Shown here in pieces: positions 14,553 through 62,760 of a DNA stretch of 64,000 bases. The DNA comes from Marsupella aquatica (taxonomy: Eukaryota; Plantae; Marchantiophyta): NCBI GenBank assembly GCA_973895155.1, contig OZ316891.1:25109899-25173898 (forward strand), given 5' to 3'. Below the pieces are notes generated by a model. It saw nothing but the letters and a program-made list of their open reading frames with translations. It was not told where the DNA came from and searched no databases. A program made the position numbers and the translations under genes. Numbering within the stretch: position 1 is the first letter of the stretch; the number at the start of each line of letters is the position of its first letter.

Positions 14553-14574
14553 GTCCTTGGGGCAATTGGATGAG

Positions 14575-15730: not shown

Positions 15731-16528
15731 GGTACATCATCAGTTATCAGTGACTGATATCAGTCATTGCTCGTCGCGCTTAACACTTACCTGCATGTCG
15801 GCGACTGTGCTCAGATTGGCCCGGGGATCTCAGCGAACTCGCAAACATCTATGATTCAGGGTTTACGGTCTTGAAACGCAAAGCAATAAGCATAAAGGCG
15901 GTGTCCGTACAGTTTTAGGCGACCATAGCCAGAATGTCAAAGAGGTCGCCGACATAAGGTCGACATGATGTTTACTAGAAAAACATTTTACAACCCATAT
16001 ATTGTAATTCGTCGGCAATGCTCGCCGAGAAGACATCATCGAGATACTACTACTAGGCTGTTGGTGGTGCCAGCCTTGAAAGAAGTAATCAACGAGAATT
16101 GTGATGCAGTGTAGAATCCTTGGGATCAGTTGCGACCACCAGAAGATCAAGATGTTTGCCCAATAAGAGAGCTTATAAGAAAAGGTAGCATGAATTCATT
16201 GTCATTCCTTGGCGATGCTCGCCGAGAAGACATCGTCAAGAGACTGCTACTCCTACTTGTCAAGCCGAGGAAAATGCTCTCGGCGAGGGTCGCCGACTTT
16301 ACCACGACAGATTCAGTAATGTATAACTAAGCTGCCTAATCTGCACAAAATGTTTCATAAGATCTGGATTACACAGCCGATTAGACGGATTTCTACTATT
16401 ATCGTCCAGTTTAATTTGACACTCCATAAAATCATTACCGACGAACGATTCAGTAACTACCAAAATGTATCAAAACTTTGAGGCTACAACGTTCCTCTAT
16501 TTCCTACAAGTAAATGTGTACACGAAAT

Positions 16529-17320
16529 TCATGTTTTTTGTACATTCACTCCAGTGAACGCCCCTAATTCAGCTCTTGCCGAGAGGAGGTCATTCATTTT
16601 TACCCATAGATTCTGGACGTTGTCACACATCTCAGATAGCCTAGCCTGCACATCTACATGAAGGCTCATAAGCTTCTGGAAGTCTGACTTGCTGTCCGCG
16701 ATCTCTGCATCCAAACTCTTCAGCAACTCTTTAGCAAACACGAAGTCAACATCAGCATATTTCGAACACTCGGCACTAGGCGAGTCCTTGTGGCTGGTTG
16801 TGTTGTAACGACCGCGGAACTTAGCTGCACCGTCTACGGGCATCTTCAACGTCTCGTTCATTCTGTTTGCATCACCAACAGCCTTGCGATTATCTGGAGA
16901 TCTCAACAGACAAGGAGCTTCACCATCACCGTCTGGCAGTGTGGTAGCCATTGCAATAGGATGCTTCCTTGGGCGACCTTGTTTCCTCTTCTCTGCCAAG
17001 AGCCAAGGAGCTTCATTATCAGGTAACGCGATCGACATTATGATGGGATGCTTCCTCGGCCGACCTCGTTTCCTCTTCTCTGTCAAGAGCCGAGGAACTT
17101 CATTATCAGGTAACGCTATCAACATTACGATGGGATGCTTCCTCGGCCGACCTCGTTTCCTCTTCTGTGGGACGATGTCCAAAACGGCGGAGACAGTGGG
17201 TGTGTGCCTGTCTTGGACACCGATCATAGACTCCACTCTGGCCATGGTGCTCTGCCCTGATGAGAAAGAAGGTGAAAAATTGTAGGGTGCATCGCGCTGC
17301 CACATTGCCTTCACCTCCAT
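16529..17320 (-). CDS. Triple AT-hook protein with a C-terminal coiled coil
   Basis: Three KRK[R/Q]GRPRKHP motifs in ~81-bp repeats and a heptad-rich C-terminus. Intact 263-aa ORF; an upstream exon is possible. Confidence 0.75.
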   Translation of the reverse strand: MEVKAMWQRDAPYNFSPSFSSGQSTMARVESMIGVQDRHTPTVSAVLDIVPQKRKRGRPRKHPIVMLIALPDNEVPRLLTEKRKRGRPRKHPIIMSIALPDNEAPWLLAEKRKQGRPRKHPIAMATTLPDGDGEAPCLLRSPDNRKAVGDANRMNETLKMPVDGAAKFRGRYNTTSHKDSPSAECSKYADVDFVFAKELLKSLDAEIADSKSDFQKLMSLHVDVQARLSEMCDNVQNLWVKMNDLLSARAELGAFTGVNVQKT

Positions 17321-17861
17321 CTATCTAGTCCGTGTTGTGGTGACCTGCAACGTACAAGACAATCATCATCATTGCCACTAAAAATCCAATAATTATTGGT
17401 ATCCTATCCCTAGACGGTTGAAGGGACAACAACGTCCGCTCGTAATAATGGGTACATGTCTTTTCACACACACTCCAGGTTTGGCCAACAAATGAGTTAA
17501 TGTTGATTTGACCTGCAACGGTCAAGACTGTCAGGATTAGTTTTTGGCACTGTATGAGCGTATGATTCCACAATTACTATGTAATCCCATTTCGGCAAGG
17601 ATCTCTGAGATCAGAGGCCACCGACTTCTTTGTTAGTTTGACGACAAAGAGTTTAGGGTGTAAGTAGATCTCGGAGAGGGTCTCCAAGATCTGGTGGTTC
17701 TCTCACTCGGCAACGGTCAAAATTATGATCCTAAGTTCCATTTTGGCGAGGGTCTCTGAGATCCAGTTTCTTACTTTACCTTGGTAAGTGCGATTTTGGC
17801 AAGGATCGCAGACATCCAATTGGGAAGTTCCATTCCGACGAAGTTCCATTCCTGCGAAGTT

Positions 17862-18400
17862 CCATTCCGGCGAGGGTCACTACATCCGGTTTCAGTGCCA
17901 TTTCGGTGAGGGTCGCTGACATCCGGTTTCAGTGCCATTTTGGCGAGGGTTGTTGACATCCGGTTTTAGTGCCATTCCGGCGAGGGTCGCTGACATCCGG
18001 TTTCAGTGCCATTCCGGCGAGGGTCGCTGACATCCGGTTTCAGTGCCATTTCGGCGAGGGTCGCTGACATCCGGTTTCAGTCCCATTCCGGCGAGGGTCG
18101 CTGACATCCGGTTTCAGTGCCATTTCGGCGAGGGTCGCTGACATCCGGTTTCAGTGCCATTTTGGCGAGGGTCGCTAACATCCGGTTTCAGTGCCATTTT
18201 GGCGAGGGTCGTTGACATCCGGTTTTAGTGCCATTTTGGCGAGGGTCGCTGACATCCGGTTTCAGTGCCATTTTGGCGAGGGTCGCTGACATCTGGTTTC
18301 AGTCCCATTCCGGTGAGGGTCGCTGACATCCGGTTTTAGTGCCATTTTGGCGAGGGTCGCTGACATCCGGTTTTAGTGCCATTTCGGCGAGGGTCGCTCA
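17862..18400. repeat. 37-bp tandem array, ~14 copies
   Basis: Unit GTGCCATTTCGGCGAGGGTCGCTGACATCCGGTTTCA (e.g. starts at 17895 and 17932), with no spacers. Confidence 0.95.
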
Positions 18401-18702
18401 GATCCGACAAATGGCAAATGTCTCCAAGGTGAGTAGCGTTCACGAACACTACATCTTGGAGATCCTCGCCGAATTCCAACGGTGCCGTTTGGATGTCGGT
18501 GAGGCCGCCGGGAGGGAAAAAAGACCACACCAATAGTACGATAACGTAAGCTTTTTTATTATTGAAAAATGTCGTACAAAATTAGTCCATGATGCTACCC
18601 CTGACCTCATTACTACATGATGAGTTCAAGTCATGACATGACCTAGTGGCCAGTGGACCCTATCGACAATGCTATCCGCGATGACCTCCTGTGCCTTCAC
18701 AG

Positions 18703-19413
18703 TCAAATATCACTAGAATAAAGCCCGTAGCCACTGTCTGGATTGTTGCTCGGCAATTTTTCTACATTGTCACACCATAAGATTGGGGTTAACCTATTCT
18801 CCACCCAGTCCTGGACTCTTCCTAGCACATCTCCATCGAAGAACTTATCATACAGATCCCTCTCAATTATCTCCGTCCTCCAGACGTAGTTTGCCACCCA
18901 AGACTTGAGTGATGTAACTGACATCATAGAGAGGGCATCAATAGGCGGAATTTGTCATAAGAGAACACGGAACGTACACGCGGTTGAGTGACGATTCCAA
19001 TGTCGGTTGTCGTCCATGTTTTCAATGACGTCCTTCACCACTTTTAACGCTGCCCATCCCTTGGAGTGAGTCACGAGGAATCTCCATTTCCTACTAACTC
19101 TGGACAATATGCGCATGTTGTCGATCATCTTGAAGGTAGCATCATCATCAGTGCCATGTGCATTTGCAGACTCAAATGCATTTCTAAGTAGAGGCCAAAC
19201 ATGTCCCTCTGTCAGCATATCCGGGAGGCCAGGGATGAGACTCTGCCTTTTTGCTTCTTCTGCTTCCTCCGGAATAGGCTCCCCAATAGTCCCCCATATT
19301 GAGAGCCGATCAAAATCAGCTTTCAATTTCAGCTCAATAATTGTCACCGTAAACTTATCAAGGCGTGTAGCGCACTTTTCATGATAACGCCTCTTCGTGT
19401 ATGATCCTTCCAT
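18703..19413 (-). pseudogene. F-box-like protein A (one frameshift near 18955)
   Basis: LIPGLPDMLTEGHVWPLL...LSRVSRKWRFLVTHSKGW. The paralog at 55228-55957 reads through this junction in a single frame. Confidence 0.7.
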
Positions 19414-19740
19414 GTTGGAGAGCCGCTTGAAGCAAGTTTAGCCGCTTGAAGCACCCGTGAGATGAAGATGACACCCAACAGATTGAACACAACAACCAAC
19501 CAACCGAACAAGCGGATGAAGAATAGAGAAAGTGCCCTCCTCTTTATAACGACATCGACATTGACATATTGGTTTCGATGGTCTCCACCTGCGAAGTCTG
19601 CGGGTTGATCTTGACCCTGTAGGGGCTGCGCGCCGGTTGCGCAACGGGCGTAGAACGTCTGTCTTCGTGGGGAGGCTCTCCCTAAGAAATGAACAGCGAT
19701 GTCATTTCTGCCCAGTGCGATGAATGTCAAAGTGTAGAAA

Positions 19741-20017
19741 TTCAACCAAGCGCAGGGATAAGTGAGAAGGACGTTGAAAACCCTAACAAAGAGTGAAGAG
19801 GAAGAGGAAGAGTAAGGAAGAAGGGAGCACGTACCGCACGTACCGCACCGCACAAAACTACGTCATGGATATGGGACATCCCAACTATACTTGACAACGT
19901 ACATCTTGTTAACAGACCAAACAAGAAAGTACGCAAGGGAAGTACGCAAGGGTCTAGGATTTACGGCCCAGTATAGGGGGTACGTGTTTAGGGTTTAGGG
20001 TTTAGGGTAAACCCTAA
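19741..20017 (-). promoter_or_regulatory. Upstream module with telo-boxes and GTAC repeats, duplicated at 37311-37655
   Basis: Inverted homology to 37311-37655. (TTTAGGG)3 at ~19987-20007 and repeated GTACCGCAC. Confidence 0.55.
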
Positions 20018-20201
20018 ACGGTCCAAATGTCAAAGACCCTCGCCAAGAATTGATAGTGAAAGATAGGAAGGATCTCATGTCGCCAAGTATTTATTACTCA
20101 AAAAAGTCGTACAAAATTAGTCCATGATCTCTAAATCTGAACCAGGTGTGGCGTACTCCTGCGTATTCTATACACTAAACCGATAATGACATGAAGTGCA
20201 C

Positions 20202-20930
20202 CTAAAAGTTGTCACGATTGACACTTACACCTTGATCAAGTCTTTCCTGAACCTGCTCAGTGTACCAATTATCAAGACGAGTCCTTTTCCAAGCATCTAC
20301 TCGTTCTTGCTGAACACCATATATCGACAGATAACAGTCCGCTTCCTCCGAATCACATAATAACCAGGAATCGATCCTCTCATTTAAGATATCATCAGCC
20401 AACCGAGCCCAAACATCAATCGGTGGAAACGCTCTCATTGACTCACAAAAGAAGTGAGGTGTCAATTCAAGCCATCTTGTGGCACAAAATATCACAGCAG
20501 TAGTCATTGCAGCCCATGCTATGGAGTTTGTTATCAAATATCTCCATTTCCTGTTGATATGTGCAACAGACCGCACCATCAGGCACATCTTCCTCACTGG
20601 AGCATCCACAAGCACAACATCTTCCAACATTGATTGGATCCGGGGCCATATGTGCAACTCCACAAGATCATCAGGCAATCCCGGAATCAAGTTACCGGCT
20701 GGAGGGCGACATCGTAGGGGATAACGAGAGGAGGGGAGATTCCAGATGCGAGCACGGTCTTGTTCTTTACTAGCAAGAAGCGTCTGCAATTCCGATGTAA
20801 GCCTTTCTTGTGTCCTATCAATCACCATCTCACGTCCGCCTGCACTAGGATCCATAGTTTCGAACAAAGCAACAACCCTCATCCCAAGGACCCAAGCGGG
20901 TTTAGGGTCGAATCTGAGCCTCGCCAACAT
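20202..20930 (-). CDS. F-box-like protein B
   Basis: LIPGLPDDLVELHIWPRI...VAHINRKWRYLITNSIAW in an intact ORF. A paralog lies at 60584-61249. Confidence 0.7.
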   Translation of the reverse strand: MLARLRFDPKPAWVLGMRVVALFETMDPSAGGREMVIDRTQERLTSELQTLLASKEQDRARIWNLPSSRYPLRCRPPAGNLIPGLPDDLVELHIWPRIQSMLEDVVLVDAPVRKMCLMVRSVAHINRKWRYLITNSIAWAAMTTAVIFCATRWLELTPHFFCESMRAFPPIDVWARLADDILNERIDSWLLCDSEEADCYLSIYGVQQERVDAWKRTRLDNWYTEQVQERLDQGVSVNRDNF

Positions 20931-21213
20931 AAATCCGTAACCCTATACTTATAACGGTCATATTATAAACCCTAACCCCCTAACCCTAGGCCCGCAACCC
21001 TGAAGTCCATGTCGGCGAGGGTCGCCAAGATGACTCAGGAGTTACATCGGCGAGGGTCGCCAAGATTAGATGACTCGGCGAGGGTCGCCAAGATTAGATG
21101 ACACGGCGAGGGTCGCCAAGAAGTCCATGTCGGCGATGATCGCCCTAAACCCTAAACCCTAAACCTCGCTACCATTAGGTGACAATGTTAGCGAGGGTCG
21201 CCGACATACAATG

Positions 21214-24200
21214 TCAGACGATACTGGCATTTGCTACAAGGCCGCGGACCTCAGTTAGAGTCAAGATAGGTTGGTTTACACATTGATCCGTGTCAATGTC
21301 CCTTTTACAGATGTTTGCAAAGCACCAGTACAAGTACTTGCACGGGAAGTAGGCTCTTCCCATCGACTCCCTATACATGAAATCCTTGCAGGAGCAACTT
21401 GGGAAGACACAGATCTGGACGCAATGTACTGAAGTTCGCCCCCTGCTAGTGTTGTTCACCATGAGCCTTATGCCGGTAGCATTCCCTGTTTCAATTCTCC
21501 TCATTGACGTGCACACAATGGCCTCGATCTTAGCATTTTGGATACGTGCTAATGCATCCTTGGGGGGGTCTGACCTCCTTCGCCTTGCCTGGCCATTGCG
21601 GCGAGTACCACGATCGTCAGGCCTTGTAGGATCTGGCCGCTCTGGGTATGTGTTCAAATCCATGATGATGTCGCCAGCACTCACTACCTCATTCATAACA
21701 TCACCACCAGAAATGACATCCACTCCATTGTTGTGCAGGAAAATAACCTCTGCTTCTGTAAGATTAGTACCACGAGAGACCGGAAACTTTGAAGGCAGTG
21801 GTGGTAGCACGCCGGTAATGAAAGGCAAAGAGGATTTTGTGCAACACTGGTTGTTCGGACAAAACCAATACGGATATGGAACACCTGGTTCATTAAATTT
21901 ACTCCCCGCCAGCCAACAAATACCAACAACACCCAATTCGCTCACTTTCAATCCTGCCTCTCTAATAAATTGAGCACATACTCCCCGTTCCTTGCCTTTG
22001 AACGCACCTCTACAACCGGGACTCTTACCACATGTTGAGATGCGGGCCAGAAATAACGTCCCTGGCACCAAATCAGTTTCCTGAACATGTCTTCTGACGG
22101 GCTCCGGACGTGGGGTTGACCTTGTCGTCCGTTGGAGAGGTTCCACAATGACAACTTCAGGCTCGCCCGAGCCACTACCGCCATCAGAAGACAGATCCAC
22201 AACTTCAGGATCTGTGCTTTTTAAGGTTGCGTCCCTGTTTGCAACCCCCTTGAACTTCCTCTTCTTTGGTCTCGTTACCAGAACAATGTCAGGCCTGTGT
22301 GAATCTTCTACTACCACATGAGCGCCAGATACGGCCTTCCCGCGCTTCATAGAAACCGTTTCTACATCTCCGCTAAGTGGGTCCGCCGACGAGAACTTAC
22401 GCAATTCTGGTTGAGTTATAACTGTGTTCAATTTTGAAAAGAAAGATTCCACATTCCCAACAGCAGTAGCGTCTCGAAGTCGGAGTTCAAATAGGCTCGG
22501 TCCCCGCCCTTTCCTCCCACTGTGTTGGTAGTGCTCCAAAGATGCAACCTGGCTCAATGCTCGAGTTGCATCTAAGTTACAGGACTGTACTAACCCAACC
22601 TTTCTATTAGAGGACCATTTCCGCATGACCGCATGCACCGACTCTGCCCCGCTGTGGTTAGGCATCAGCGTAGCCTTTTCTCTGTCCATCTCCTACAATT
22701 TCCAAGAAGAATGTCAATACAATTGGAAACATATCTCGGCGACCGCTGCCAATATTTGACAGAAAGCGTTACAGACAGAGGTCATCCAATTGAACATCCC
22801 TTCAACTGACCCCATGTCAGCGAGCTTCGCCGAGATTTGACGGATTTCATGCATATAGAGGAAAAGCGTTAGACACTTACGAGTCTCAAAAAATTTCCCC
22901 ATTGAGAAAACCGAACAATCCACCAAGACATCCACGTTGTGAGCTCCTTCGCTTTTCCAGGTAGCGCGTTGCCCTCGCTCCACCACGTCTTAAGCTTCTC
23001 AAAAACTCGAAATGCAAGAACTATGTTGCCGGCGTGTCGAAGCGAATCTAGAATTTCCTTATGCTCAAATCTCTTCTGTGGGACAATGTGCTTCTGCACC
23101 CTCTCCACTGATTGGGCCCAGTGAAACGCATCAAACCTCTCTCTATGGGTATTTACCTTTCCATCCCAAAATTCATTGCGGATTGCATTCCACCCAGCAG
23201 CAGCATTATCAGCCATAAAGCCACAAAATTCAACATTGATAAGCCCATGTTCTCCACACACCCTCCTCATGACCTTCCATGCAGTTTGTAATGCCGCACT
23301 ATCTTCTGAAACCAGCTCACAAACAAATATTGTGCACAGGCCCCGATAGAAATGGTCATACACGTGTGCTGACATGGTGCACCATTTGTTGTCAAGTATA
23401 CGATGCATCACATCAGACATCACCCATGAATGCTCGAGATCCCCGCCTGGCTGCATTCTTCGAACAAGGTCCACCCCGGAACCAGGACCTTCTGTACTCA
23501 TTTTAAAAATGTGCGGTCGCTCGTCTGTTCCCACGTTCTGGGATGGGAACAAAACACTTTGGATAAACGGAAAGGCAGTCACCTTCCGCATCTCCAGTAT
23601 CATGTTAAGATCAGACGACACATGACTGTACTTCTTGATGCTCCTGATCATAGAGCAAAAAATGGATTCATCACCGAGGATGGACAACATTTCATTAAGG
23701 TCTCTTGCCTCCTCAGATGTCACCATTTTAGCCACTGGGTCTTCAAGGATATCTTTAAGTTTCTGTATTGCCTTGCCCTTGATAACAGACGGCATAGCAG
23801 TCGGACTCCTCTTCAGCTCCACCTCCACAAGATTGCGCACAACTGATCGTTGATCCTTGTTATGCGTGAACATTGCAGGATGGGTGTGATTTCCTATATG
23901 CATCGCAACACGAGACTTGTGACAATAATTCACGTCATCCTTGGTTGGAGTGATATAGTACATCTCACTTGGGCATCGAGCTATACACCTGGGAGGCCTC
24001 TTGCAGTACGTACAAATTACACTCGACGGGGTAACATCGCGTCCAACAGGGAAAGGTAGCTCATTTGTGCCTGCTCGATCTCGGGTCCACTTTGCAGAAT
24101 TGTGCTCTTGTCGCTGTTGAAAATTTTCACAATCCTCATGCAGACATCGCAGAGAACCCAAACACTTGACGCTTTGGATCTTGTACGAGTGACTATTGTT

Positions 24201-25064
24201 GTTCAGCTTTGGGCCAATGTTTGCTCCCGTCTCAATTAACCGGCTCCACATGTAACAATCGTTCTTGCGCTCCATCCCAAAGAAGAAACAACCCTTAGAG
24301 TATGGACCAGTAAAGGGTGGCAACTCAAAAATATGGTCTCCATCATAGAATTCTGGCAATCGCAGAACTCTCTCGGGCAATTTCATGCTCAAAATCTTAC
24401 GAGCAGCTTGTACACAACGAGAGGTCCCTTTTCCGTGCAACATGGCATGAACAACACTGACAAGGAACTCATCCTTCCATACCGAATCACCATCTTGGAG
24501 ACCCTCGCAGAGGATGGATGCCTTTGAACGAGGTGTCTCCTTTGGTTGACGATAACAAGCTCCACGATCCTCCCAGAATTGGGATGTGTTTGACTGAGGT
24601 GTATTCATTGGTGAAGGTTCACCATCTCGGAGACCCCCTCTGACATGAATCCCACTGGATCGAGGTGTCTCCTTTGGTGGAGTATCACCATCTCCACGAT
24701 CCTCCCACATTCGAAATGAATTCGACCGAGGGGTACTCGTCCGAGAAGGTTCTTCATGTCGGAGACCCTCTTTGACATGGTGTGCACTTGGTATGCACCC
24801 TATCTTTCTGCAAAGAATATAAGACGCGCCATACTTCAGGTACCACTCTCGCTCATCTCCATCTCCTTTGGATTCAGCAGACATGGACAACCCGTCCTTG
24901 CTCTCCTCATAAATCATGAAATCCCCTACCTTCAAACCAAAACGGCTCGCTACTTCATGTTCCTTAGTCACTCGGACAATGTCAACGTTAGAATTACGAA
25001 AAACAACTACATCCCCCGTTAAAGATGTGATAATCACAAGAGAGGCCATGTTTCCCGAATCCAC
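21214..25064 (-). CDS. MULE-type transposase, two exons (25064-22881, 22692-21214), ~1220 aa: GCM-like Zn domain, DDE core, zf-PARP-like finger, SWIM
   Basis: Phase-0 GTAAGT...TTGTAG intron joins the 731-aa and 491-aa ORFs. Catalytic motifs WVMSDVMH, FMADNA, DAFHW (C/DxxH) and NHSGAESVHA. GCM-like CLGSLRC..C...CTYC...GNHTHP. SWIM PSCSCKDF...PCKYLYW (His changed to Tyr in this copy). Confidence 0.85.
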
Positions 25065-25363
25065 ATAGGGAATGATCTGACATCCCTTAAAACGACAAAC
25101 TTTGAGGCTCAGCGTTAACGCACCTGTACGTACCAGTTACGGCCAAGAATACCGTTCCGGACAACGTGCGTAGAGAAATCGTATGACCCGGAACGATACT
25201 TATAATGAGAATTGTACCGCAAAGAAGGTACCTAATTGCCAGCAGCCGCCAAGAAGGTACATTTCTGTAATGTGTGGATGTGGTACATTCTGCACGTCGT
25301 GGTCTTGAAAGTCCCATCGTGCGGGCCCACAATCCCTCGTGCGGGCCCGATCCCCTCTTTACC

Positions 25364-26195
25364 CTACATCAACTTTTTATCCATACTACTCGGCGAGGGT
25401 CTCTGAGATCTATTTGGGACTCCTGGGGCCCACACTCTTGTGCAAGCTCGAGTTTCACAGTAGGAAATTTGTTGACTTTTCAACATTGACTGTTCAACAT
25501 TGACTCTTCGAGTCGGAGCATCATCGACTTTTTATCCCTACTCCTACTCGGCGAGGGTCTCTGAGATCTATTCGGGACTCCTGGGGCCCACACTCCTGTG
25601 CAAGCTTGAGTTTCACAATAGGAAATTTGTTGACTTTTCAACATTGACTGTTCAACATTGACTCTCCGAGTCGGAGCATCATCGACTTTTTATCCCTACT
25701 CCTACTCGGCGAGGGTCTCTGAGATCTATTCGGGACACTTGGGGCCCACACTCCTGTGCAAGCGAGAGTTTCTCAGTAAGAGATTTGTTGTTTTTGCAAC
25801 ATTGACTGTTCAACATCGACTCTCCAAGTCGGAGCATCATCGACTTTTTATCCCTACTCCTACTCGGCGAGGGTCTCTGAGATCTATTCGGGACACCTGG
25901 GGCCCACACTCCTGTGCAAGCGAGAGTTTCTTAGTAAGAGATTTGTTGTTTTTGCAACATTGACTGTTCAACATCGACTCTCCGAGTCGGAGCATCATCG
26001 ACTTTTTATCCCTACTCCTACTCGGCGAGGGTCTCTGAGATATATTCGGGACTCCTGGGGCCCATACTCCTGTGCAAGCAAGAGTTTCTCAGTAGGAGAT
26101 TTGTTGTTTTTGCAACATTGACTGTTCAACATCGACTCTCCGAGTCGGAGCATCATCGACTTTTGATTCCGTCTCTTACTCGGCGAGGGTCTCTA
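25364..26195. repeat. 158-bp tandem array, ~5.3 copies
   Basis: CGGCGAGGGTCTCT at 25391, 25549, 25707, 25865, 26023 and 26181 (exact 158-bp period). Confidence 0.95.
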
Positions 26196-29100: not shown

Positions 29101-29711
29101 CCATTTTCGCATCTTGGATTCGATAGTACTGAAGAGAGTGCCTGAGTTTCAATTGTCCTAAGAGATATCTCAATTCTCTAAGACGTCCGATTGTCAAGTA
29201 CAATGTCAAGACTGAGCTGCCAAGATGCAGGTTCATGCATGAACACTCTGTATTTACCTTACCTCGAATATGAGATCCTGGCATTAACGAATGACGACAA
29301 TGTGTTTGCGTGTCCTTTCTGCCCTGTCCCAGCTCAGAATGACTACTCGTAAAGAGCTGCAAAGGCAAAATTGTTTTCGTGTTCTTCAGATTGGCATGCA
29401 ACAGTTTTCTCAACAATAATTTAACTATGGGGTGCAACCACAATGAAGTGCACGAGGGCGGAGGGAATCACAGAAATTCACCGGGGGCAGCTGCATTGAC
29501 TTCTTGATCCATCGCATGCCTTGCTTGCTTCTGATGATCAAGGGTTGTTTTTTGCGTAGGCCAAGGGCCGCATTTTTGAGGACGCACACATGCGAGTTGG
29601 CCCTTATTGTATTGAGTAGTATTTGACAGGTTCCCTGTTGAAATTAGATCTGATCTTGGTTTTTGTTGTCGTTCTTTTCCTTCTCTCTATACTAATGCTT
29701 TTGTTTGCCAG

Positions 29712-29824
29712 GACGTCACAGTGATGGGGTCGTTTGATAATTGGATGCGAGGTGAATCCTTGTCTCCAGAGAGTACAGGAACATTCACAAATTTCTCCGC
29801 TACACTCAAATTGCGGCCAGGCAG
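29712..29824 (+). pseudogene. PTST1: Captured exon of a CBM48 protein, PROTEIN TARGETING TO STARCH 1-like
   Basis: DVTVMGSFDNWMRGESLSPESTGTFTNFSATLKLRPG, flanked by CAG and GT splice sites. Confidence 0.75.
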
Positions 29825-45577: not shown

Positions 45578-45936
45578 ATTGACCAAAGGAATGAGGAGTG
45601 CGATAAATTTATCGGATGTTCATAGCAATGCCTCATTCACTCAGACTCGTCCATGCCATGCAAGAATTGTCCGCTTCCCGCTTTCTCCAAGATTCACCCA
45701 AACTCTCGAGAAGAGCTTGTAAAGAAACACTTTGAATGTAAATGACACTGCCTCACCTGACTTCGGGTTGTGTGGTCTAGAGTGTAGTTTTTTGCGCATC
45801 TACGGACGATTAGCTGACAAGTGCATTGGCTTCACAACCCATTATACAAGGTACTATAAAGTTGGAATAAACTTGTACAATTGTAATGAGTATGTTCTCC
45901 AAAATGTATTCCTGATTTCTATTCGCTGATCAGGCC

Positions 45937-48913: not shown

Positions 48914-49759
48914 GTTAGTGTTGCACAAATGCCTGTTGTGACATTCCGTCACGCCGCTATTCAGTAGCTATAGTTAATCCTGAGACCAGTGCCACAGATT
49001 TTCATTGGCTGTGGGCCTATGATCACATGATCACTCATATACCCCAATGGGTATGATAGCCATGATAGAAAACAGAAAATAGATAACCTGTTACCAGGAG
49101 ATATTTTGCTGTTAACAGTAAAATTTTCCCTGTTACCAGTTTTGCATCAACCATAGCCCTTTGGTCCAAATGAAAAACTACACTAATCACATAATTTTGC
49201 TTTAGTGAATTAGGTTTAAAACAAACAATTATTTTGTGCCATCCGATGGATGAAGAGTACTATCAATCCTCCCTTGCCACAACATTTTGTTGTAGAAGAT
49301 AACTAAACACGGTATTGGGACTATACCCAATGAAACATTCATTCAAATATCACTATTTGTCCAGGCTAAAAAATGACCCTTAGGGTGGGACCCACCATAG
49401 CACAAGTGAAGAGTAGTGTCCAAATAAACTCAATCAAAATGAATTCACTTAAATGGACCGTGTACCGTGACAAACAAATGACAAAACACCTCCTAGCGAC
49501 AACTATATTTTTCATAATAATTGAATAAACGCGGCTTTAATGATAAAAGAGAATGATATCCACTTACACATTTTAGATAAAACATGTTGTAATGCTTACA
49601 CTACACGCATACATAATAAAGCAAGGAAAGTAAGAGTTTCTAGAAGCAGCACCTGGCGCTAACCAAAAATTCTGAATAAAACAAGTAAAATATCAGTTGG
49701 CTAAAGACAAAATAGTGACTATCCGTTATATTGAACGACCTATACGTAAGTTTTGGCCT

Positions 49760-52700: not shown

Positions 52701-53464
52701 AGATCCGACAACATACTGACCACTAAGCTTTGGAGTACCCTGCCATGCCTTAGCATTTGCCTTCTTCTTCCTTTGGAAGTACTCGCAGGACTTGTTCCGA
52801 CATTCAATAAATCCCGTACAGGTAACCTTACCGAATTGCCAAAGTTTTTTTTGGCTGAACGTTTGCGGTAGTTGGAAATATGCGTGTCCAAATGTAGCAA
52901 TCTTTGGCACGGTCCATGTCCCTAAGCCTAGAGCCTTTAGAGAGCATCTTGTCAATGGGTGGCGATTCAAACACAACGTTCCCATTGTACTTAGTTGGCA
53001 GACAGGAGACTTGCTCGTGTCTGAAATCACCCGCTGATATGAACCTCGATAACTCGCTATGACCAGTGGATTTGAGTAACGTATCCATTGCACTCTGCCA
53101 ATACACAACCTCCAATTGGTTGGAGCTTCCCGGAGTCTCACCTTTAACGACAGCATGTTGCGGGACTTTCATCTTCAACGTAGGACTTGGAGTGTGATCT
53201 CCATCTTCACTAGAAGAAATCTTGACAACATCAAATATAACTTGGGGACACTGGACAGTCCTTCATGTTGTCTTACTCGAAGTGAGTACAGAATCCCTGC
53301 GTATAGATGCCAAAACCGTTCACCATCATCCACATTGAACGTTGCAGCATCTTCGATGTCATCACTGGTTCAAGCTCTCAAACAATGCACTCAATATCAT
53401 TCATCTTCAAATCAAATCTCCTGCGAAGGTATCTCTCCCGGACCTGCTTGTACGTGTCTTCCAT
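49760..53464 (-). pseudogene. Second-family GCM-like/MULE/SWIM transposase, frameshifted
   Basis: Fragments collinear with 21214-25064: KVTCTGFIEC..GEHNHP, RPHIFKMTTKGHGS, WVSFDVMQH, DAFHF, ESRHASMK, WFCPNQTC and SWIM PACSCEDF..PCKHLYW. Intron at an equivalent position (~51300-51560). Confidence 0.85.
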
Positions 53465-53829
53465 AGGGACGGGGATGGTGACAATATCCCCAGTCCTGAA
53501 TCGGGATAGAAGTATGGACCAAGACATTGCAATCATAAACAAATACCGAGGGCTGTAATGTTTTGAGGAAGAAAAGTCTATGGGAATATGGAGCTTATAT
53601 CAGTTGAACCTGGGAACTTCACGTTAACCGATCTGGTTGTATAAGACATAAAACATAGACAACATAGGATCCGTTGGCACCATAAATGAATTTTGTCATT
53701 TTTCCCTGATAAGTCCGGATGTCAGACGCATACATACTGCCAAAAAAGACACCACAAAAAGCTTTAACCGACCCTAAGATATTCCATAGTCGGAACAATT
53801 TGAGTAGCGCCTGGCGCTAACTAAAATAC

Positions 53830-54384
53830 TGTGGTGCGTCCCATGGCTCCCTAAACCCAAGAAACCCCTCTGCACAAGCCGATTCCCGCAGGTTTCGCTC
53901 TTGGCGAGGCCAATTTTGCGGCTTAGCGGCATGGGACGTTGCTAACCTCCTTCTACTACTTTTACTATTAACATTTTTCTCACATATACTGGACAGATCC
54001 TTCATCGGGTCATGAGATACGTAGTCGGCCTCTTCTAGGCCTTCCCTTGTCCTCCTCTCTCGGTTTCCCTTTAGGTATGTTTGGATTCCGCCGCCGGAAT
54101 GATCCCCAACTGGTTTGGGTAAGCCGCTAAGACCTCTCTCAGCTCGTGTGGTGCGCCCCATGGCTCCCTAAACCCAAGAAACCCCCCAGCACAAGCCGAT
54201 TCCCGCAGGTTTCGCGCTTGGCGAGGCTGTTTTTGCGGCTTAGCGGCATGGGACGCTGCTAACCTCTTCCTCTACTACTATTAACATTTTACACACATAT
54301 ACTAGACAGATCCTTCATCGGGTCATGAGATACATAGCCAGCCTAATCTAGGCCTTCCCTTGTCTTCCCCTCCTTCTGGAGATA
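53830..54384 (-). mobile_element. End of another LTR with an internal ~230-bp direct duplication, interrupted by MULE copy 2
   Basis: Starts TGTGG. 53830-54060 is repeated at 54147-54370, and the TTCCGCCGCCGGAA hairpin shared with other LTRs lies at 54086-54099. Confidence 0.55.
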
Positions 54385-55227
54385 GGTAACATCATCAGCT
54401 ATCAGTGACTGATAACTGATATCAGTCACTGATATCAGTGAAGGGTCCATAGTGAGGGGATGTGGGCGAGGTCTCTGACATTGGCAAGGATATGTCGGCG
54501 TACTCGCCAACATCATAAAATCATTCAAGCGGACCCAATATGTCCTTTCCGTACACATTAATGCGACCAAATTAGAATGTCAGCGAGACCGCCGACTTGA
54601 TCTTTACTATAATTGTTTTGGAAACTTCATACATTGTCTCTCCTTGGTGGGTTAGGCGCTACGCTTGACTGTTTTGTGTTGGGAAAAGATCTCGGCGAGG
54701 GTCGCCAACTTCACAATGCTGCGTGCTCAAAACAAAGTTGTCTGCTCAAAACCGCAAAATGTGTCAGAGACCCTTGTCGAGTGTTGCATGGCATTGGCGA
54801 TCTGACGTACGTCCAGCAATCTGACGTACGCCAGCATATCTTGGAGAAGGCCGCCGAGATCTGGCCGAGTATCATCTCAGAGACCCTTGTCGAGTTTTGC
54901 ATGTCGGCGAGGTGGTCGACATTGGCGATCTGACATACATCCAGCGATTTGACGTACCCCAGTATATCTCGGAGAAGGCCGCCAAGATCTGACCAAGATT
55001 CATCTCAGAGACCCAAGCTGAGTTCTGCATGTCGGCGAGGTAGCCAACATTGAAAAAACACCGTGCCAAACATGTTTGTCGTGCAAATGTCAAGTAATTT
55101 ATTAATCACAAACTCGTACAAAATTTGTCCATGTTACAAAATCTGAACCAAAACTACCAGGGGTGAGGATAAATTCTTCTAAACTAAACCTAAACCAACA
55201 ATGGCGATCGACCTAAACCCTAAATGA

Positions 55228-55957
55228 TCAAATGTCATCACTATGAAGCCCGTACCCACTATCGGGATTGTTGCTCTCCCAACTTGCTACATCGTCACAC
55301 CACAACAATGTGTGTAGCCTGTTCTCCACCCATAGTTTGACCCTTCCAAGCTCATCCTCGTCAAAGAAACTGCCATACAGATCCCTCTCATATCTCTCTG
55401 TCCTCCAAACATAATATGCCACCCAAGACTTCAATGATATAGGTGACATCATTGCGAGGGCATCAATAGGAGGAATTTGATGCAAGAGGACTCGAAACGT
55501 GGACGCGGTTGAGTGTCGAGTCCAATGTCGATTTTCAGATATGTTTTCAACAATGTCCAACAGCACTTTTATGGCTGCCCATCCCTTTGAGTGAGTCATT
55601 AGGAATCTCCATTTCCTACTAACTCTTGACAATACATGCATGTTGTTGATTGCGTTGAATGTAGCATTATCATCTCTGCCATGAGCATTTGCACATTCAA
55701 ATCTGTTTCAAAGTAGAGGCCAAATGTGTCCCTCCATCAGATCATCCGGGAGGCCGGGGATGAGACTCTGCTTTTGGGCTTCCTGACTGCGCAATGGATA
55801 ATGCATAGGCTCCCCCCCAGAACTCCAAGGAGAACTCCATATTGACAACTTATCGGAAAGAGCTATCAATTTCAGCTCAGTAACAGTCATCCTGAACGTC
55901 TCAAGCCGTGCAGCGCACTTCTCATGATAACACCTCTGCGCATTGGATCCTTCCATG
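55228..55957 (-). pseudogene. F-box-like protein A, copy 2 (frameshift at ~55705)
   Basis: MEGSNAQRCYHEKCAARL...LIPGLPDDLMEGHIWPLL / LSRVSRKWRF...NNPDSGYGLHSDDI, closely similar to 18703-19413. Confidence 0.75.
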
Positions 55958-56585
55958 TTGAACAAGAGAATAGTGTCAAGTGGAGACCTCCATGATAAGG
56001 CAACCAAAGAGTGAATAGTGATATGGATGATTGACCTCACAAATTTTGCCCAAAACTTATGGTTTTATTGCTAGGAGCAGATTAACTAAAAAAACATTGT
56101 CTAAATATTATGGGACTGTTCGATATATTACGGGGTTCCTATCTGTTATCCATCTCAGAGAGGGTCTCTGAGATTTTGCGGATTGTGCCTGCCAATTTGT
56201 CAACACAATATAGTACACTTATCTCAGAGACTCTGGCCGACTTCACGAGGACAAAAGTGATGGTAAACGACCTCTCCAAGACTCATCTCAGAGACTCTCT
56301 CCAACATGAGAAGGACAATTGTGTACTGCCATGTATGTTGAAGAGGTCACTAACATAACGAGAACATTGCACTGAGATTCCGCTCAAAAAATTAAAACTT
56401 TTACTATTCAAATTTTTTTGTACAAAATTGTTCTAATTGGTCTATTACACAAAATTGGTCTAATTGTTCTAATTGGTCTATTACACTAATGCAGGCTGAT
56501 ATTTGACATGGCATTCAATGTGGGCAAACAACTTTCACATTGGTGCTCAGTCGATGCCGCTAAAAATTGTCACGATTAACAGGAA

Positions 56586-59500
56586 TGTGACGCCGCCGGT
56601 ACGGCAAGTAATGAGTAATTTGGTCTAAACCGTGCCTAGCACGCGCGTTAGGGGTATCTTAGGCCGCTATGATTAGCATAACGACAGTATTTAGGTAGCC
56701 ATTATGAGTAGGAAATCATTAGTCAATAAGGGGAATTCATGTTTGGGCTGGCGGCGCGTCCCCATTTGCACGCCCGGGTTACGAGCGTGGAGGGGCCCTT
56801 CCTCGGGTCCGTATAACGAACTTTGGGAGGCATCCGTTGACACGCGGTGACTCAGACCGGCGGAGTGGCCGGTACACTACAAGCGTGAACGGTTCAGCCT
56901 ATGGGCAGCGAGGAGATGACAGGGGATTGGCAAGCCCTCAAGGTATAAAGAGGGAACCGGCCCTTTGGAGTGCACCAGTCCATCAGTCCACGCGCCAGCT
57001 TCGATCCCAACTCTCTCGTTCTCTCTAAGTCGCCACTACTATCTTCTCTGAATGTTGCGCACAATCCTCTCCAGTTCGGCCATTCGATTCTGGACGCAGT
57101 TCCTATCTACCGGAAGGCACTTGGCCGACTCATTGAAACACGCCAACCCGTGCCGATACAAAATAGAACGCGAGTACGAGAGAGCCATCCGCCTAGCAGG
57201 ACAACACCACTACATCCTTAACTTTGACTACCCATCCCAAAGTGAGCTTTACCAACCAGCTGAGGTATCTGGGTACTTCTTCAACGGAGACAAATATATC
57301 GGGTTTTGGGAAGCATTGCTTTGGCTTCCGGACGAGGTCTTCAATATCCTGGGGACGATCGACTTGCAACAACATCACTTCGACCACATCCCTGCTCAGG
57401 TTCGGGCTATCATCAACATCAAGTCTAGTACTAACCGTTCGACAAGGTCGTCCGCACTTGTTTTGGAGAACTTCTACCAGCACCTGCAGAGCTTCATGGG
57501 AACTAGACCCGCAACCACCGGCGCCAGCCCGATGGACCCCATACCCGTACCCATACCAATGCAGACTCAGGGTCAGGCTCAGCCTCAACCTCAGCCTAGC
57601 CAACCCCCACCGCCAATCGCCCCGCCAGCAGTACAAGTACGCTCTGTTATCAACGCTGTGGACCTTAGCGACGACGACGAACCTACCCCACCCTTGATCA
57701 GGCGGCCAAGAGGAGCAAGCACTCGGGGGGCCGATACTACATAATCCCCTCCTCGGACCCACGGAGCGGCTCTAGCAGACAACACGGTGATCGTGGCCGC
57801 CCCGGGCCCATTACTAACGGCGGTAGCACTACCTGTGCCCGAAAAAGAGGATGGGGAGGTGTCACCATCCCCGAGCCAGCCACGGGGGAAGAAGAGGAAG
57901 GAACCCACCACTGCATCCGGGTTACCATTGGCCACGGTAGCCGTGGCCAAGGTGACAATGCACCACATGGGGGAAAATGTGCATAACAACATCCTCCATC
58001 CCAAGCATGCGGTGTACCTGAAGACTCAGGGATTTGAGCACCTCACCTCTCTCCCCTGGAACACTTGCAGGTACTACGGGGAGGACATGACAGAATTCGT
58101 CAAGAATTATGACGGCATACGTCAACAGACTCGGCTGCGGGGAAGGAATATGTCCCTCATGGAAGAACGGCTCAAGATGATCTTCGGACTACCCAAAGGT
58201 GACCATCAAGTCAAATCACGGGCTCCCGTGGGCAAGGGAGCCAAGTACCAATCCTCAAGTTTTCCTTCAGAGGGAGCAGTGGACAACGGGTTCGTGATGA
58301 GGACCTGCCTCATGCCCAAGATAGCTGAGCGGCTGGAGTTCCAAAGGTACGCTCTCCACATGATGGAACCCCGGGGGGAGATCTCCGCCGCCCAGGTTAT
58401 CCAGGTCGAGAACTATCGACCCAGGAGGTGGGCGTCGTACTTCGCTAAGAAATTCCATGAAGAGATGGAGCGGCGAAAGAAGACGCTATATATTGGCGGG
58501 AAGGTATATTTTGCTAGCCACATCGAGATCATTCTTGAGTGGTACGCTCAGTTTGATCGACGAACCCTTCCCCGTGTCAACGTTGCAAGGCTGGTCCCCG
58601 CTAGGTGGGTGTTCCCGGCCTTGGAGAGACGGCCCCAACCCAAGGCACGAAGTCCAATGGACACGCAGGCTTCACCCACCCCACCCCCGCAAGTAGCTAT
58701 AGTCGTGACCGAGGAGGTACCGGATGGGTCGGTTATCGCAACCGTAGATGCGATCCAACAGGCCGGGCTAAGTACAGAAGTCGGTACAACGGAGGTCTTA
58801 CTCGAGCCCGGGCCCCCCAATGACCCGGCGATGGCTATTCCGGAGAACCGGACATTGCAGTTGCAGGACACTCCAGCCCCTTCCAACGCGTCACCAAGGC
58901 TGGATGTCACTGCCCCGGCCCCCGCATGTTGACGTCTGCCCATGCCCAACTCCGGACAGGCACAACCTGGACCACCCAGAACTCTTCGTACCGGGCACAT
59001 TTCTGAATGGGCTTCTGGGAGATTTTTCTCATCAAATTGCCCGGGATATCGGGGAGTTCATGGCCCGGAAGGTAGCCTGTTTCTTCAATCAGGAGTTGGT
59101 TGCCGCAGTAAAAGCCGGTCGGGCCCTGTTGGAGGCCCTTCAGAGGATAGAGCGATACCGGGAGGAGTCCGTATACTTAAAGAACGAGGTTGCAGCTCAG
59201 GAGGCGGAGCTTCTGCAACTACGACCCAAGGTCGCAGCCGCCGACGAGTCGTTAGCAAAGGCGCACGCCCTTACCGCCCTAGCCGAGCAGGCCAAAGCAG
59301 GGAATGAGGCCGAGATTTCACGGCTCCGGTCCCAGATTGACAGTTTGAAGAAACAAACTGTCATCTGGCAGAAAGACTTGGAGGAGGCCGAAGAACAAGC
59401 CCAGCGGGACACTACGGAAATAGCCACGCTACAAGCCAAAGTAACGCGGCTTCAGACCAAAGCCAATAAGCAGGACCAATTGGTAGGCAAGCTGACGAGC

Positions 59501-60583
59501 GACGCCCAGCAGCTGGAGGAGGCATGCCAGGAGGCAGCGGAGGAGACGAACGCGGCAAAGCGAGAGAACGAATCTCTGCTAGACCAAGTCCAGCTCCTCA
59601 AGTCGGACAACAACAGGCTTCGCAGACAGCGGGAAGACCGCTCCCACTCGGGCGGCTCTGGCAAGCGTGCCAGACATTAGCGGTGGAGTAGGAATAGAAT
59701 AGGGTTAGGAGTAGCTAAAGTTAGGCTATTGGGACAGGCACCTACCTTAGTTACAGCAGCACTGCCGTGCTGTCTAGCCTGCGTAGATTAGGATCTTCTA
59801 ATAAGACACGGCCATTTTTTGGCCTGACGGTCAGATTAGTTAGGACCTAAGTCAGCGGATCTTCGGGCGGGAGGACACTCCGTTCCCCGGCCCTTAGTAT
59901 TTAGTGCACCCCTCGGTAGAAGCAAGGGGGGGGTTTTTAGTCTCAGAGTTGGACATCCATGGTATGTGCGGGGAGTCCCGACCTCTGGGAATGAAAGAGT
60001 ACCAAGGGGAGGGGGTAGGACTAAGCTCGTTGGGCGAGTGCGGAGCCGGGCTCCGTTGTAGTATACTCTCTCGGCCTTGAACCTATTCATTCCGGAGCTA
60101 TCAGGTCAACCAAGTGTACGCACATGTCCCCTATGTAGTAAAATCCTTTCCCATTATTTCCTTCGTGTAAATCGAGATTGTATGCTTGTGCGCGTGTATG
60201 TGTGTGTGTGAATCTCGTGTATAGGTGACAACGCCGGGCCGAACGCACTACCTGAGTCGTGCACGGGGTGCAGCCTATGGGTATGTGGTTGCGAGCACGG
60301 GTTGAGGACCTGTATCATAGAATCTGGATCGAAGGCGGACAACACGAAGGCTTAGAAGTCCTTAAACCGGGGTTGATCCTGTTATCGACTAAGGTATGTT
60401 CCGGCGGCGGAACACAAACCATACCTAGGAGATGTCCGTATCTAACAGTAGGCGCACTTAGCGCTAGTTTTCGTGAATTAGGTGCATGACGCGCTTCCCT
60501 CCCTGCTCGAACCCTCATTTTTACGAAGGAGATGCCCGTTTAAAGCTGAAGCCTGAGTTACGGCCAAGGCGGATGACGTGACA
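56586..60583 (+). mobile_element. Solo LTR (3998 bp) with a long internal ORF, inserted in F-box-like gene B copy 2
   Basis: TGTGACG...CGTGACA termini and 5-bp TSD AGGAA (56581-56585 / 60584-60588). Removing it restores the host C-terminus ...ERLDNGVPVNRDNF*. Confidence 0.92.
57052..59680 (+). pseudogene. LTR-encoded ~875-aa protein (one stop, one frameshift)
   Basis: 57052-57744 and 57787-58932 are in the same frame, with a shift to 58820-59680 (coiled coil). TATAAA at ~56944 upstream. Homologous along its length to 8676-10991. Confidence 0.8.
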
Positions 60584-61249
60584 AGGAACACCATTATCAA
60601 GTCTTTCTTGAACCTGTTCAATGTACCAGTTATCAACACGAGTCCTTTTCCAAGACTCTACTTGCGCTTGCTCAAGACCATATACGGAGAGGTAGCAATC
60701 CACTTCCTTTGAAGCACATAACAACCAAGAATCGATCCTTTCATTTAAGATACTATCAGACAACCGACTCCAAACATCGATCGGTGGGAACGCTCTCACT
60801 GAATCTCGAAAGAACAAAGGGGTCACTGTAGGCCATCTTACGCGACAAAATGCTATAGCTGTAGTCATTGCAGCCCATAGTATGGAGTTTGTTATCAAAT
60901 GTCTCCATTTCCTGTTGATATGAGCAACTGATCGCACCATCAGGAAGAGAGTCTTCACTGGATGATGACCATCCCAAACTGGATCCAAAACTGCAACACC
61001 TTCGAGCATTGACCAAATCCGGGGCCAGATGTGCAACTCCACAACCTCATCAGGCAACCTTGGAATCAAGTTACTCACTGGAGGGTGATATTGTAGGGGA
61101 TAACGAGGATTCCAAATGTGAGCACGGTCTTGTTCCTTACTAGCCAGAAGCGTCCGCAATTCCAATCTAAGCTTTTGTTGTGTCCTATCAATCAAAAGCT
61201 CACGTTCACCTGCGCCGCGATCCATAGTAAGTTTGTAACAAAATAACAT
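60584..61249 (-). pseudogene. F-box-like protein B, copy 2 (last codons displaced to ~56560-56585 by the LTR)
   Basis: LIPRLPDEVVELHIWPRI...VAHINRKWRHLITNS; strongly similar to 20202-20930. Confidence 0.8.
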
Positions 61250-61374
61250 GCCTAATCTGAGAGCGAGCGGATGGTCTACCCTCCTATTGTGACCCTATCC
61301 ATAGCAAACCCTAAACACTAAACTGACAAGAACAACGGATACATAATATCGGTCACATAAAACGGTCATTTATC

Positions 61375-62760
61375 CTAAACCCTAAACCCTAAACCCTAGG
61401 CCCAAAACAAGTGACCCTATTTGGCTGTTTGGTAAATGTCGGTGAGGGTCTCTGAAATACAATGTTGGTGAGGGTCTCCAAGATACAATGAGGAAGGAAA
61501 CCTATTCATGTCGGCGGAGGTCGTCCAGATCAGACAATACCGGCATTTGATACAAGTTTGCCGACCTCAAAGTCAAGATTGGTTGGTCATTTTTCCTAAA
61601 CCCTAAACCCTAGGCCCAACACAGGTGACCCTATTCAGCTGTTTGGTAAATGTCGGCGAGGGTCTCCAAAATATCAGCGAGGGTCTCAGTAATACAATGT
61701 CTGCGAGGGTCTCCGAGATACAATGAGGAAGGAAACCTGTTCATGTTGGCGGAGGTCGTCGAGATCAGACAATACCGGCATTTGATACAAGTTTGTTGAC
61801 CTCAAAGTCAAGATTGGTTGGTCATTTTTCCTAAACCCTAAACCCTAGGCCCAACACAGGTGACCCTATTCAGCTGTTTGGTAAATGTTGGCGAGGGTCT
61901 CCAAAATATCAGCGAGGGTCTCAGTAATACAATGTCTGCGAGGGTCTCCGAGATACAATGAGGAAGGAAACCTATTCATGTTGGCGGAGGTCGCCGAGAT
62001 TAGACAATACCGGCATTTGATACAAGTTTGTCGACCTCAAAGTCAAGATTGGTTGGTCATTTTTCCTAAACCCTAAACCCTAGGCCCAACACAGGTGACC
62101 CTATTCAGCTGTTTGGTAAATGTCGGCGAGGGTCTCCAAAATACAATGTCGGCGAGGGTCTCCAAAATACCTTGTCAGCGAGGGTCTCAGTAATACAATG
62201 TCGGCGAGGGTCTCCAAAATACCCTGTTAACGAGGGTCTCAGTAATACAATGTTGGCAAGGGTCTCCGAGATACAATGAGGACGGAAACCTGTTCATGTT
62301 GGCGGAGGTCGTCGAGATCAGACAATACCGGCATTTGATACAAGGTTACCGACCTCAGAGTCAAGATTGGTTGGTTAACACATTCATCCATTCATAGGAA
62401 CCGTTCATACATAATATCGGTCACATATAACCGCGTCTTTTTTCCTAAACCCTAAACCCTAGTCCCAAAACAGGTAACCCTATTCGGCTATTTGGTAAAT
62501 GTCGGCGAGGGTCTCCGAAATACAATGTCGGCGATGGTTTCCGAGATACAATGAGGAAGGAAACCCTATTCGGCTATTTGGTAAATATCGGCGAGGGTCT
62601 CCGAAATACAATGTCGGCGATGGTTTCCGAGATACAATGAGGAAGGATACAATGAGGAAGGAAACCCTATTCGGCTATTTGGTAAATGCCGGCGAGGGTC
62701 TTCAAGATACAATGTCGGCGATGGTCTCCAAAATACAATGTCGGCGGAGGTCGCCGAGAT
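61375..62760. repeat. Complex tandem array, 235-bp core unit containing telo-boxes, the family palindrome and the transposase 3' end
   Basis: CTATTCAGCTGTTTGGTAAATG at 61631, 61866 and 62101. Units include CCTAAACCCTAAACCCTAG and GACCTCAAAGTCAAGATTGGTTGG. Confidence 0.85.

Follow-up and report, generated by a model that had tools for sequence, protein, structure and literature searches.

The genome of the liverwort Marsupella aquatica contains a 64,000-nucleotide stretch (assembly GCA_973895155.1, contig OZ316891.1, positions 25,109,899 to 25,173,898), hereafter the window, which is a nest of plant transposons. Two related Mutator-type elements within it, E1 (15724..44754), a cargo transposon of about 19 kb when a nested CACTA element is set aside, and E2 (about 54380..63605), are strewn with a 23-bp palindrome, and E1 also carries a gene whose product is predicted to contain a ParB-like fold. 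The locus raises the question of what, if anything, reads this palindrome: the element's own ParB-fold protein, its transposase, a host factor, or no protein at all. A sister element, E3 (44755..54379), lacks the 23-mer and serves as an internal control.

The 23-bp palindrome and its distribution

The 23-mer is a real feature of this DNA. When sites were scored by their number of mismatches to the consensus AT(C/G)TCGG(C/A)GA-NNN-TC(G/T)CCGA(G/C)AT, 96 were found at five mismatches or fewer in the 64,000 nucleotides, 95 of which lie between 16009 and 62760. Fifty blockwise dinucleotide shuffles gave an expectation of 1.42 such sites; at up to four mismatches 88 sites were observed against 0.24 expected, and at up to three mismatches 68 against 0.0. 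The copies singled out in the original prediction are present, that at 36948-36970 being perfect and those at 17668 and 21009 carrying one mismatch each, and all six intervals which it had named as motif-bearing (6/6) hold copies.

All 95 sites fall within E1 and E2 and none in E3. At five mismatches or fewer, the 10-kb CACTA insert, the long terminal repeat (LTR) element at 56585-60580 and the block 44746-54385 contain no site at all, as had been noticed by eye for the inserted CACTA and LTRs, and positions 1-15730 hold a single weak one with five mismatches. The exact motif had no match in the viral contigs scanned. Clustering on flanking sequence resolved the copies into 40 independent contexts, with 55 of the 95 copies collapsing into shared-flank groups; since 40 groups have unrelated flanks, recent duplication alone is insufficient to explain the motif.

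Within E1 and E2, the motif avoids coding DNA: only 3 of the 40 independent sites are coding, though coding DNA makes up about 53% of the two elements (p=1e-9, with exon limits estimated). The motif had been described as marking all non-coding DNA of the element. The strong enrichment stands, while 3 of the 95 sites (24492, 24624 and 24756) lie inside the transposase frame, and 14 of 17 non-coding intervals carry a copy, the three without one being short putative introns of 64-118 bp. The coding copies (24492-24778) translate as HVKEGLRH-like repeats in an N-terminal extension of the transposase, with a repeat unit of 132 bp.

From left to right, E1 carries three subterminal copies at 16009..16299, along with lone exact half-sites at 15795 and 15946; 19 copies at 17589..18475, of which 14 form a tandem array of 37-bp period, upstream of an AT-hook-like gene; six copies in a 28-bp repeat at 21009..21207, accompanied by telo-box repeats, upstream of cargo gene B; nine copies (a 158-bp array and singles) at 25387..26575, upstream of the transposase; seven, including the perfect copy and a 107-bp array, at 36628..37296, upstream of the ParB gene; and two subterminal copies at the right end (44296..44480). 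Introns hold the motif as well: seven copies form a 92-bp array in a putative intron at 42430..42981, whose splice sites were placed by eye, two lie in the transposase intron (about 22694-22880), one in a putative intron of the 5' untranslated region of the ParB gene and three in an intron at about 40378-40700. The tandem arrays of the original prediction are real, although they number more than three and belong to two elements rather than one. Array periods holding the 23-mer are 28, 37, 92, 107, 132 and 158 bp in E1, and 26, 86, 101, 128 and 235 bp in E2, which has 32 copies. While the genes of the two elements are 77-86% identical, most of their spacers are unalignable; equivalent spacers nevertheless keep the motif, in arrays of different period.

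Two further observations concern the promoters. Those of cargo gene A (19748-20055) and of the ParB gene (37050-37656) contain an inverted paralogous module, 80-91% identical in blocks and including the 23-mer, an arrangement which suggests co-regulation of the two genes. In addition, telo-box (AAACCCTA) repeats cluster in E1 and E2 promoters (19778-21154, 37026, 37333, 55215 and 61306-62662) and are absent, within the window, from the CACTA, E3 and the LTR element.

The 23-mer consists of two inverted 10-bp half-sites around a polar 3-bp center, which is GGG in 62 of 95 copies. Plus-then-minus half-site pairs at a distance of up to 40 bp number 27, and in 20 of these the spacing is precisely 13 bp; of the 36 exact half-sites, 28 are partnered. 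The arms had been thought to vary together, a claim that did not survive: association between positions 8 and 16 gave Fisher p=0.78 over the 95 sites and p=0.29 over the 40 independent ones, and between positions 3 and 21 p=0.73 and p=1.0, respectively. Symmetric pairs were observed in 23 of 38 cases at positions 8/16 (19.8 expected) and in 19 of 31 at positions 3/21 (18.8 expected). In a folding test on five hand-picked copies, only the perfect copy outperformed its own shuffles. With no arm covariation, no compensatory change and one copy in five folding better than its shuffles, covariation and hairpin models were rejected. The failure of covariation favors protein read-out over a hairpin, and the constant spacing, the independence of the arms and the scarcity of the motif in coding DNA together suggest that a protein dimer reads it on double-stranded DNA.

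As for decay, 171 of the 271 mismatches are C>T or G>A, as would be expected from host cytosine methylation. Among the 80 best-supported differences in variant contigs (of about 2,900), five fall within motif sites: three restore an arm to the consensus in other copies, one alters the center and one is non-restoring. At 61436-62760 and 42518-42748, full sites stand only 2-3 bp apart, so that half-sites alternate in orientation with a period of 12-13 bp.

A gene for a predicted ParB-fold protein

The gene in question lies at 38208..42430 on the plus strand and appears to encode, in order, a ParB fold, a helical domain, an acidic linker and an amino-methyltransferase-like region. It is broken in the window by two frameshifts and one stop; contigs of other copies lack these lesions, and likewise those of the Ulp1 region that follows. 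For the ParB exon, 67 homologues were found; 39 of them carry [DE]GNHR, the window copy reading DGNHR. Homologues of this accessory protein, intact copies included, are named from Riccia sorocarpa, a liverwort, and from the fern Adiantum, and the window gene is collinear with a 1207-residue Riccia protein (P0073) over its ParB, helical and methylase-like parts.

A structure model of a Riccia homologue (P0010; mean predicted local distance difference test score, pLDDT, 68.8, and high over the ParB part) aligned with five bacterial ParB chains at Z 8.2-8.5, with a root-mean-square deviation (rmsd) of 2.5-2.6 Å over 93-96 residues for three of them. Sulfiredoxin scored lower, at Z 4.1-5.5. Some of the ParB alignments reach 153-158 residues, past the N-terminal fold, at an rmsd of 5.1-5.3 Å. 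These comparisons support the assignment of a predicted ParB-fold protein to E1, and the early suggestion that a ParB-like gene is on board is backed by this modeled fold of a homologue.

The protein departs from its bacterial counterparts in several respects. The canonical ParB Box II has an arginine patch, GxxRxxA with ERR; here it is replaced by DGNHR, in which one arginine is kept. The nucleotide used by ParB-type proteins is, in the consulted part of a recent account, described as not predictable from sequence (PMC12704722). No ParA or ATPase family was found among the 29 open reading frames scanned by Pfam, which cover the long frames of E1, and E1 is not a member of the ParABS systems.

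The methylase-like region is similarly divergent. Matches to N6_N4_Mtase, all below the curated cut-off, were obtained for three of five Riccia homologues, namely P0073 and two members of its cluster, with E values from 9e-6 to 5e-5, and language-model neighbors include phage ParB-methylase fusions (score 0.82-0.83, a lead only). At the catalytic position (motif IV), the window copy reads QMGSD versus DxP[T/S/F]G in 18 of 31 long homologues, and the S-adenosylmethionine-binding motif I reads FNAHFG versus FAGGWG. From these motifs, as read in the window copy, the domain is predicted to be inactive in the E1/E2 family. Searches of PDB sequences with the methylase-like exon and with the ParB alignment returned no match, none of 364 stretches was confirmed in a metagenome scan for the ParB middle domain, and neither the window ParB exon nor part of P0001, a homologue of the transposase, was found in an Atlas look-up.

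Downstream, at 43296..44122 on the plus strand, lies a region encoding an Ulp1-family (SUMO) protease, frameshifted here (Peptidase_C48, E 5.8e-11 and 4.3e-7). It possibly represents the last exons of the ParB gene, a fusion which, like the introns, is predicted from sequence.

Candidate readers of the palindrome

The ends of E1 bear on the choice of reader. Inverted repeats of about 45 bp (29 of 33 aligned columns match) occupy 15724..15770 on the plus strand and 44700..44754 on the minus strand. They contain a second palindrome, of ACTGATATCAGT type, which also opens E2 and is a candidate transposase site; the nearest full 23-mers lie about 280 bp inside the E1 and E2 ends. In the consulted part of the work on Arabidopsis, binding by Mutator transposase and by TnpA is terminal (bioRxiv 10.64898/2026.08.24.746577), which makes the terminal motif the natural transposase site, while an element-wide motif calls for an accessory protein. 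By this analogy, the ACTGATATCAGT-type palindrome is likelier to be the transposase site than the 23-mer. The transposase itself (21214..25136, minus strand) has two exons and appears to combine a Cys/His domain, a MULE-type DDE core and a C-terminal SWIM-like motif. Its DDE core with a CxxH-like motif and its C-terminal SWIM are visible by eye and are conserved and collinear with P0001, whereas Pfam and PDB searches returned no MULE, GCM or SWIM match. The Cys/His domain looks GCM-like by eye, a label which found no Pfam or PDB support, and the structure model is unusable (pLDDT 34.5). None of 22 stretches was confirmed when viral contigs were scanned for the transposase. A metagenome scan confirmed one of 399, a 2.5-kb locus (L001) of coding DNA only, in which the best window is seven mismatches from the 23-mer.

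On balance, we favor the reading that the 23-mers are family-specific loading sites for the element's own ParB-fold protein, serving self-recognition and anti-silencing and not segregation, a proposal we hold to be evenly poised between right and wrong. A dimer would read one half-site per subunit through the helical domain that follows the ParB fold. Expansion of the arrays would raise site density near each promoter and in introns, as for VANC targets. Once bound, the protein, which may spread like VirB or KorB as a clamp gated by nucleotide, would keep the genes of the element expressible. Cognate copies would also be kept expressible in trans, so that every copy would recognize itself and counter host silencing. 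The predicted-inactive methylase-like domain may act as a binding module, and host 5-methylcytosine at the CG-rich site may both erode it by C>T change and gate binding. The earlier suggestion of a site for a dimeric element-encoded protein retains the 10-3-10 geometry, the independent half-sites, the family confinement and the non-coding enrichment in its favor, although its covariation argument has fallen. A bolder form of the proposal is improbable in our view: a nucleotide-gated ParB clamp in plant chromatin, loading at the palindromes and spreading over the 19-kb element in the manner of VirB, would carry a dead methylase and a SUMO protease that strip silencing, each family evolving its own clamp-palindrome pair separately from its transposase-end pair.

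Several observations weigh against the loading-site proposal. The fold evidence comes from the model of the Riccia homologue, which is about 32-37% identical to the window exon. A Foldseek search with this model placed ParB, Noc and KorB in its top nine rows, none of them at E<=0.001 (best 0.12), and a wide structure search gave no Z>=8, KorB coming first at Z 7.4 with helical noise at 7.0. The ParB-gene region has no match to a helix-turn-helix (HTH) profile, and ParB-fold proteins devoid of HTH, such as Srx and SerK, are described as not binding DNA sites (PMC12704722, consulted in part). E3 has its own palindrome, yet no ParB gene is seen for it in the window, where E2 truncates its upstream side; the ParB gene of E2 is likewise out of view. 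A lone half-site (15795) lies 71 bp from the left end of E1. Conservation is only weakly mirror-symmetric (rho 0.62, p=0.054), and its figures are biased upward, as sites were picked by nearness to the consensus of the original prediction. Finally, a Mutator transposase is able on its own to bind and activate the family to which it belongs (bioRxiv 10.64898/2026.08.24.746577, consulted in part).

This last point underlies the foremost rival, which is unlikely in our estimation. One of the zinc domains of the transposase would bind the 23-mer, besides the terminal palindrome, as self-activation sites of the TnpA or AtMu1 kind or as internal synapsis sites. A transposase is in view for E1/E2 as well as for E3, each of which has its own palindrome; the enzyme has several Cys/His domains; and clusters of cognate motifs are bound by the AtMu1c transposase and by TnpA, both of which activate their families. 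These proteins, however, bind at the termini (same source), while the 23-mers run through introns and promoters across 19 kb. As the termini carry a different repeated palindrome, the transposase-site alternative raised early on has lost ground. That the AT-hook protein, the cargo proteins or a host factor reads the motif is less probable again. The G-type half-site contains TGTCGG/CCGAC, which we take to be the ARF and DREB/CBF core motifs, and the telo-box repeats in the promoters indicate that host motifs are in use. Of the 80 pooled independent arms, 19 have G at position 3, but 52 have C and are without that core; a host site would not be restricted to one family, AT-hooks bind AT-rich DNA, and E2 has no AT-hook gene at the equivalent place.

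We consider it very unlikely that the motif is a neutral product without a reader, i.e., an ancestral palindrome spread by slippage, conversion or a hairpin micro-element. The many tandem-array copies collapsing into shared-flank groups and the C>T/G>A decay are what this explanation would draw on, but it fits poorly with a constant geometry, 40 contexts with independent flanks, the scarcity of copies in coding DNA and the persistence of the motif where spacers cannot be aligned, and neither the lack of compensatory change nor the folding result favors a hairpin. Scarcely more credible, and if anything slightly less so, is the idea that the 23-mers are substrates of an element-encoded N4-cytosine/N6-adenine methyltransferase marking the family. 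The Pfam matches of the Riccia homologues and the phage ParB-methylase neighbors (the latter as a lead) point that way, and the same has been proposed for Ectocarpus Sola1-1 (PMC12477816, consulted in part); the degenerate QMGSD and FNAHFG motifs of the window copy and the sub-threshold Pfam scores speak against it. The least probable alternative, which we regard as highly implausible, is a genuine parS/ParB system that would partition the element in an extrachromosomal form. A predicted ParB fold together with dyad sites invites the comparison, but no ParA was found among the frames scanned, the canonical arginine patch is absent, and each element has some 60 degenerate sites. The likeness to parS/ParB noted at the outset therefore survives as a working analogy and not as a partition role, for which a nuclear transposon offers no place, whereas the VANC-like alternative, also raised then, appears by analogy to fit the layout of the 23-mers better.

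The surrounding transposons and related systems

The limits of E1 were set at 15724 by the loose ends of flanking contigs and a step in depth, and on the right by the loose end of a single contig at 44755 and the terminal repeat. Mutator elements usually generate target-site duplications of 8-11 bp. None was found at the two ends, and the flanks are different repeats, so this copy has probably recombined. Contigs of four out of four runs (two studies) cover E1 with many variants, depth giving no copy number, and the family is multi-copy. Behind the terminal repeat, E1 encodes on the minus strand the AT-hook-like gene, cargo genes A and B and the transposase, followed by the divergent ParB/methylase-like gene and the Ulp1 protease. 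The first of these (16529..17320) has three RGRP AT-hook-like repeats, read from the translation, and no match to the Pfam AT_hook family. Cargo genes A (18703..19437) and B (20202..20942) look F-box-like by eye, have no Pfam match and share 77% and 78% identity, respectively, with their E2 copies (at the DNA level for A). The nested CACTA (26598..36607), whose ends were read directly, is flanked by a 3-bp duplication, GAC, contains no 23-mer and matches Transposase_24 at E 1.6e-4; one contig joins 26597 to its far side and thus represents E1 without the insert.

E2 belongs to a related subfamily with the same terminus and gene order as E1. Its start at about 54380 was set by contig loose ends, it is interrupted by the LTR element at 56585-60580 and it is cut at 63605. 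It repeats the E1 terminus, the cargo genes and the 3' part of the transposase at 77-86% identity. E3 encodes a divergent transposase (49787-53400, minus strand) of the same type as that of E1, and its own 7-1-7 palindrome of 15 bp, YAGCGCCWGGCGCTR, occurs four times (49647, 51336, 51477 and 53805), always in non-coding DNA, against 0.20 expected, the pattern having been chosen post hoc.

Elsewhere in the window, a third cluster of spaced palindromes (GTCATTTTRGAC, a 2-bp spacer and its reverse complement) sits in tandem repeats at 7030-7600 and is probably the subterminal array of another DNA transposon. Related LTR-bounded elements at 9105-10800 (minus strand) and 57052-59680 (plus strand) code for no proteins other than proline-rich and coiled-coil ones, no polymerase being in view, and an LTR at 11178-11545 recurs at 63606-63973, where a further copy begins at the window end. 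A duplicated 125-bp unit of very high depth (53830-54379) abuts the left end of E2, and a unit of about 570 bp is present in three copies at 121-1560.

Among characterized systems, and within the consulted parts of the sources cited here, the Arabidopsis VANDAL elements offer the closest likeness in layout. They too have accessory genes and a short motif particular to the family, which is located in non-coding DNA (introns, intergenic stretches and termini) and has been amassed through tandem repeats differing between related families (PMC5735166). VANC targets are 8-9-bp non-palindromic motifs to which binding is proven (PMC5735166), whereas here the motif is a 23-bp dyad for which a predicted ParB-fold protein is the candidate reader. 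No VANC-type Pfam family was matched among the 29 frames, and no direct comparison with a VANC sequence was made. The Spm TnpA and AtMu1 systems are similar in that a protein of the element binds a family motif which contains CG and is densely clustered, but binding is terminal there (bioRxiv 10.64898/2026.08.24.746577), unlike the element-wide sites and separate terminal motif described here. Bacterial ParB/parS, VirB, KorB and Noc share dyad sites and a ParB fold followed by a helical domain (PMC12704722, PMC10770331), VirB being an antisilencer loaded at virS sites (PMC10770331). The protein of E1 differs by its DGNHR Box II, the lack of ParA, a large insertion, the methylase-like tail and its setting in eukaryotic chromatin.

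ParB accessory genes in algal transposons, once beside inverted-repeat arrays, have already been published, and both algal papers, in the parts consulted, propose self-binding without a test. In the red alga Bostrychia, the Plavaka element with PAG3, a DNA transposon of 17-19 kb, combines a ParB-like accessory gene with inverted repeats in tandem, for which a role as self-target is proposed (bioRxiv 10.1101/2025.02.11.637652). It is, however, an EnSpm element, its ParB is fused to a 2-oxoglutarate oxygenase and the arrays are described only beside PAG3 and not element-wide; the parts consulted define no motif for them. Sola1-1_Ec32 from the brown alga Ectocarpus, a 21.5-kb element of the Sola superfamily, encodes a ParB-like and N4-cytosine/N6-adenine methyltransferase-like protein on the strand opposite to its transposase, with self-binding proposed, and the string "palindrom" does not appear in its main text (PMC12477816). 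By domain layout, the E1 gene resembles these algal accessory proteins, being ParB-like, amino-methyltransferase-like and divergent from the transposase; compared with Sola1-1_Ec32, it has degenerate methylase motifs and is followed by an Ulp1 protease.

The literature searched, which excluded subscription journals and Iyer et al. 2011, held no description of a ParB gene with a palindrome system in land plants. To the algal proposals, the window adds a candidate site that is precisely defined and backed by strong statistics, a distinct motif at the element ends, a control in the form of the sister family, and named homologues from Riccia and Adiantum that are intact. With these sites, the notion of a ParB-type protein acting as a site-loaded antisilencer in a eukaryote becomes directly testable. 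If true, it would give land plants a second anti-silencing system of independent origin, and possibly provide a tool for targeted epigenome editing.

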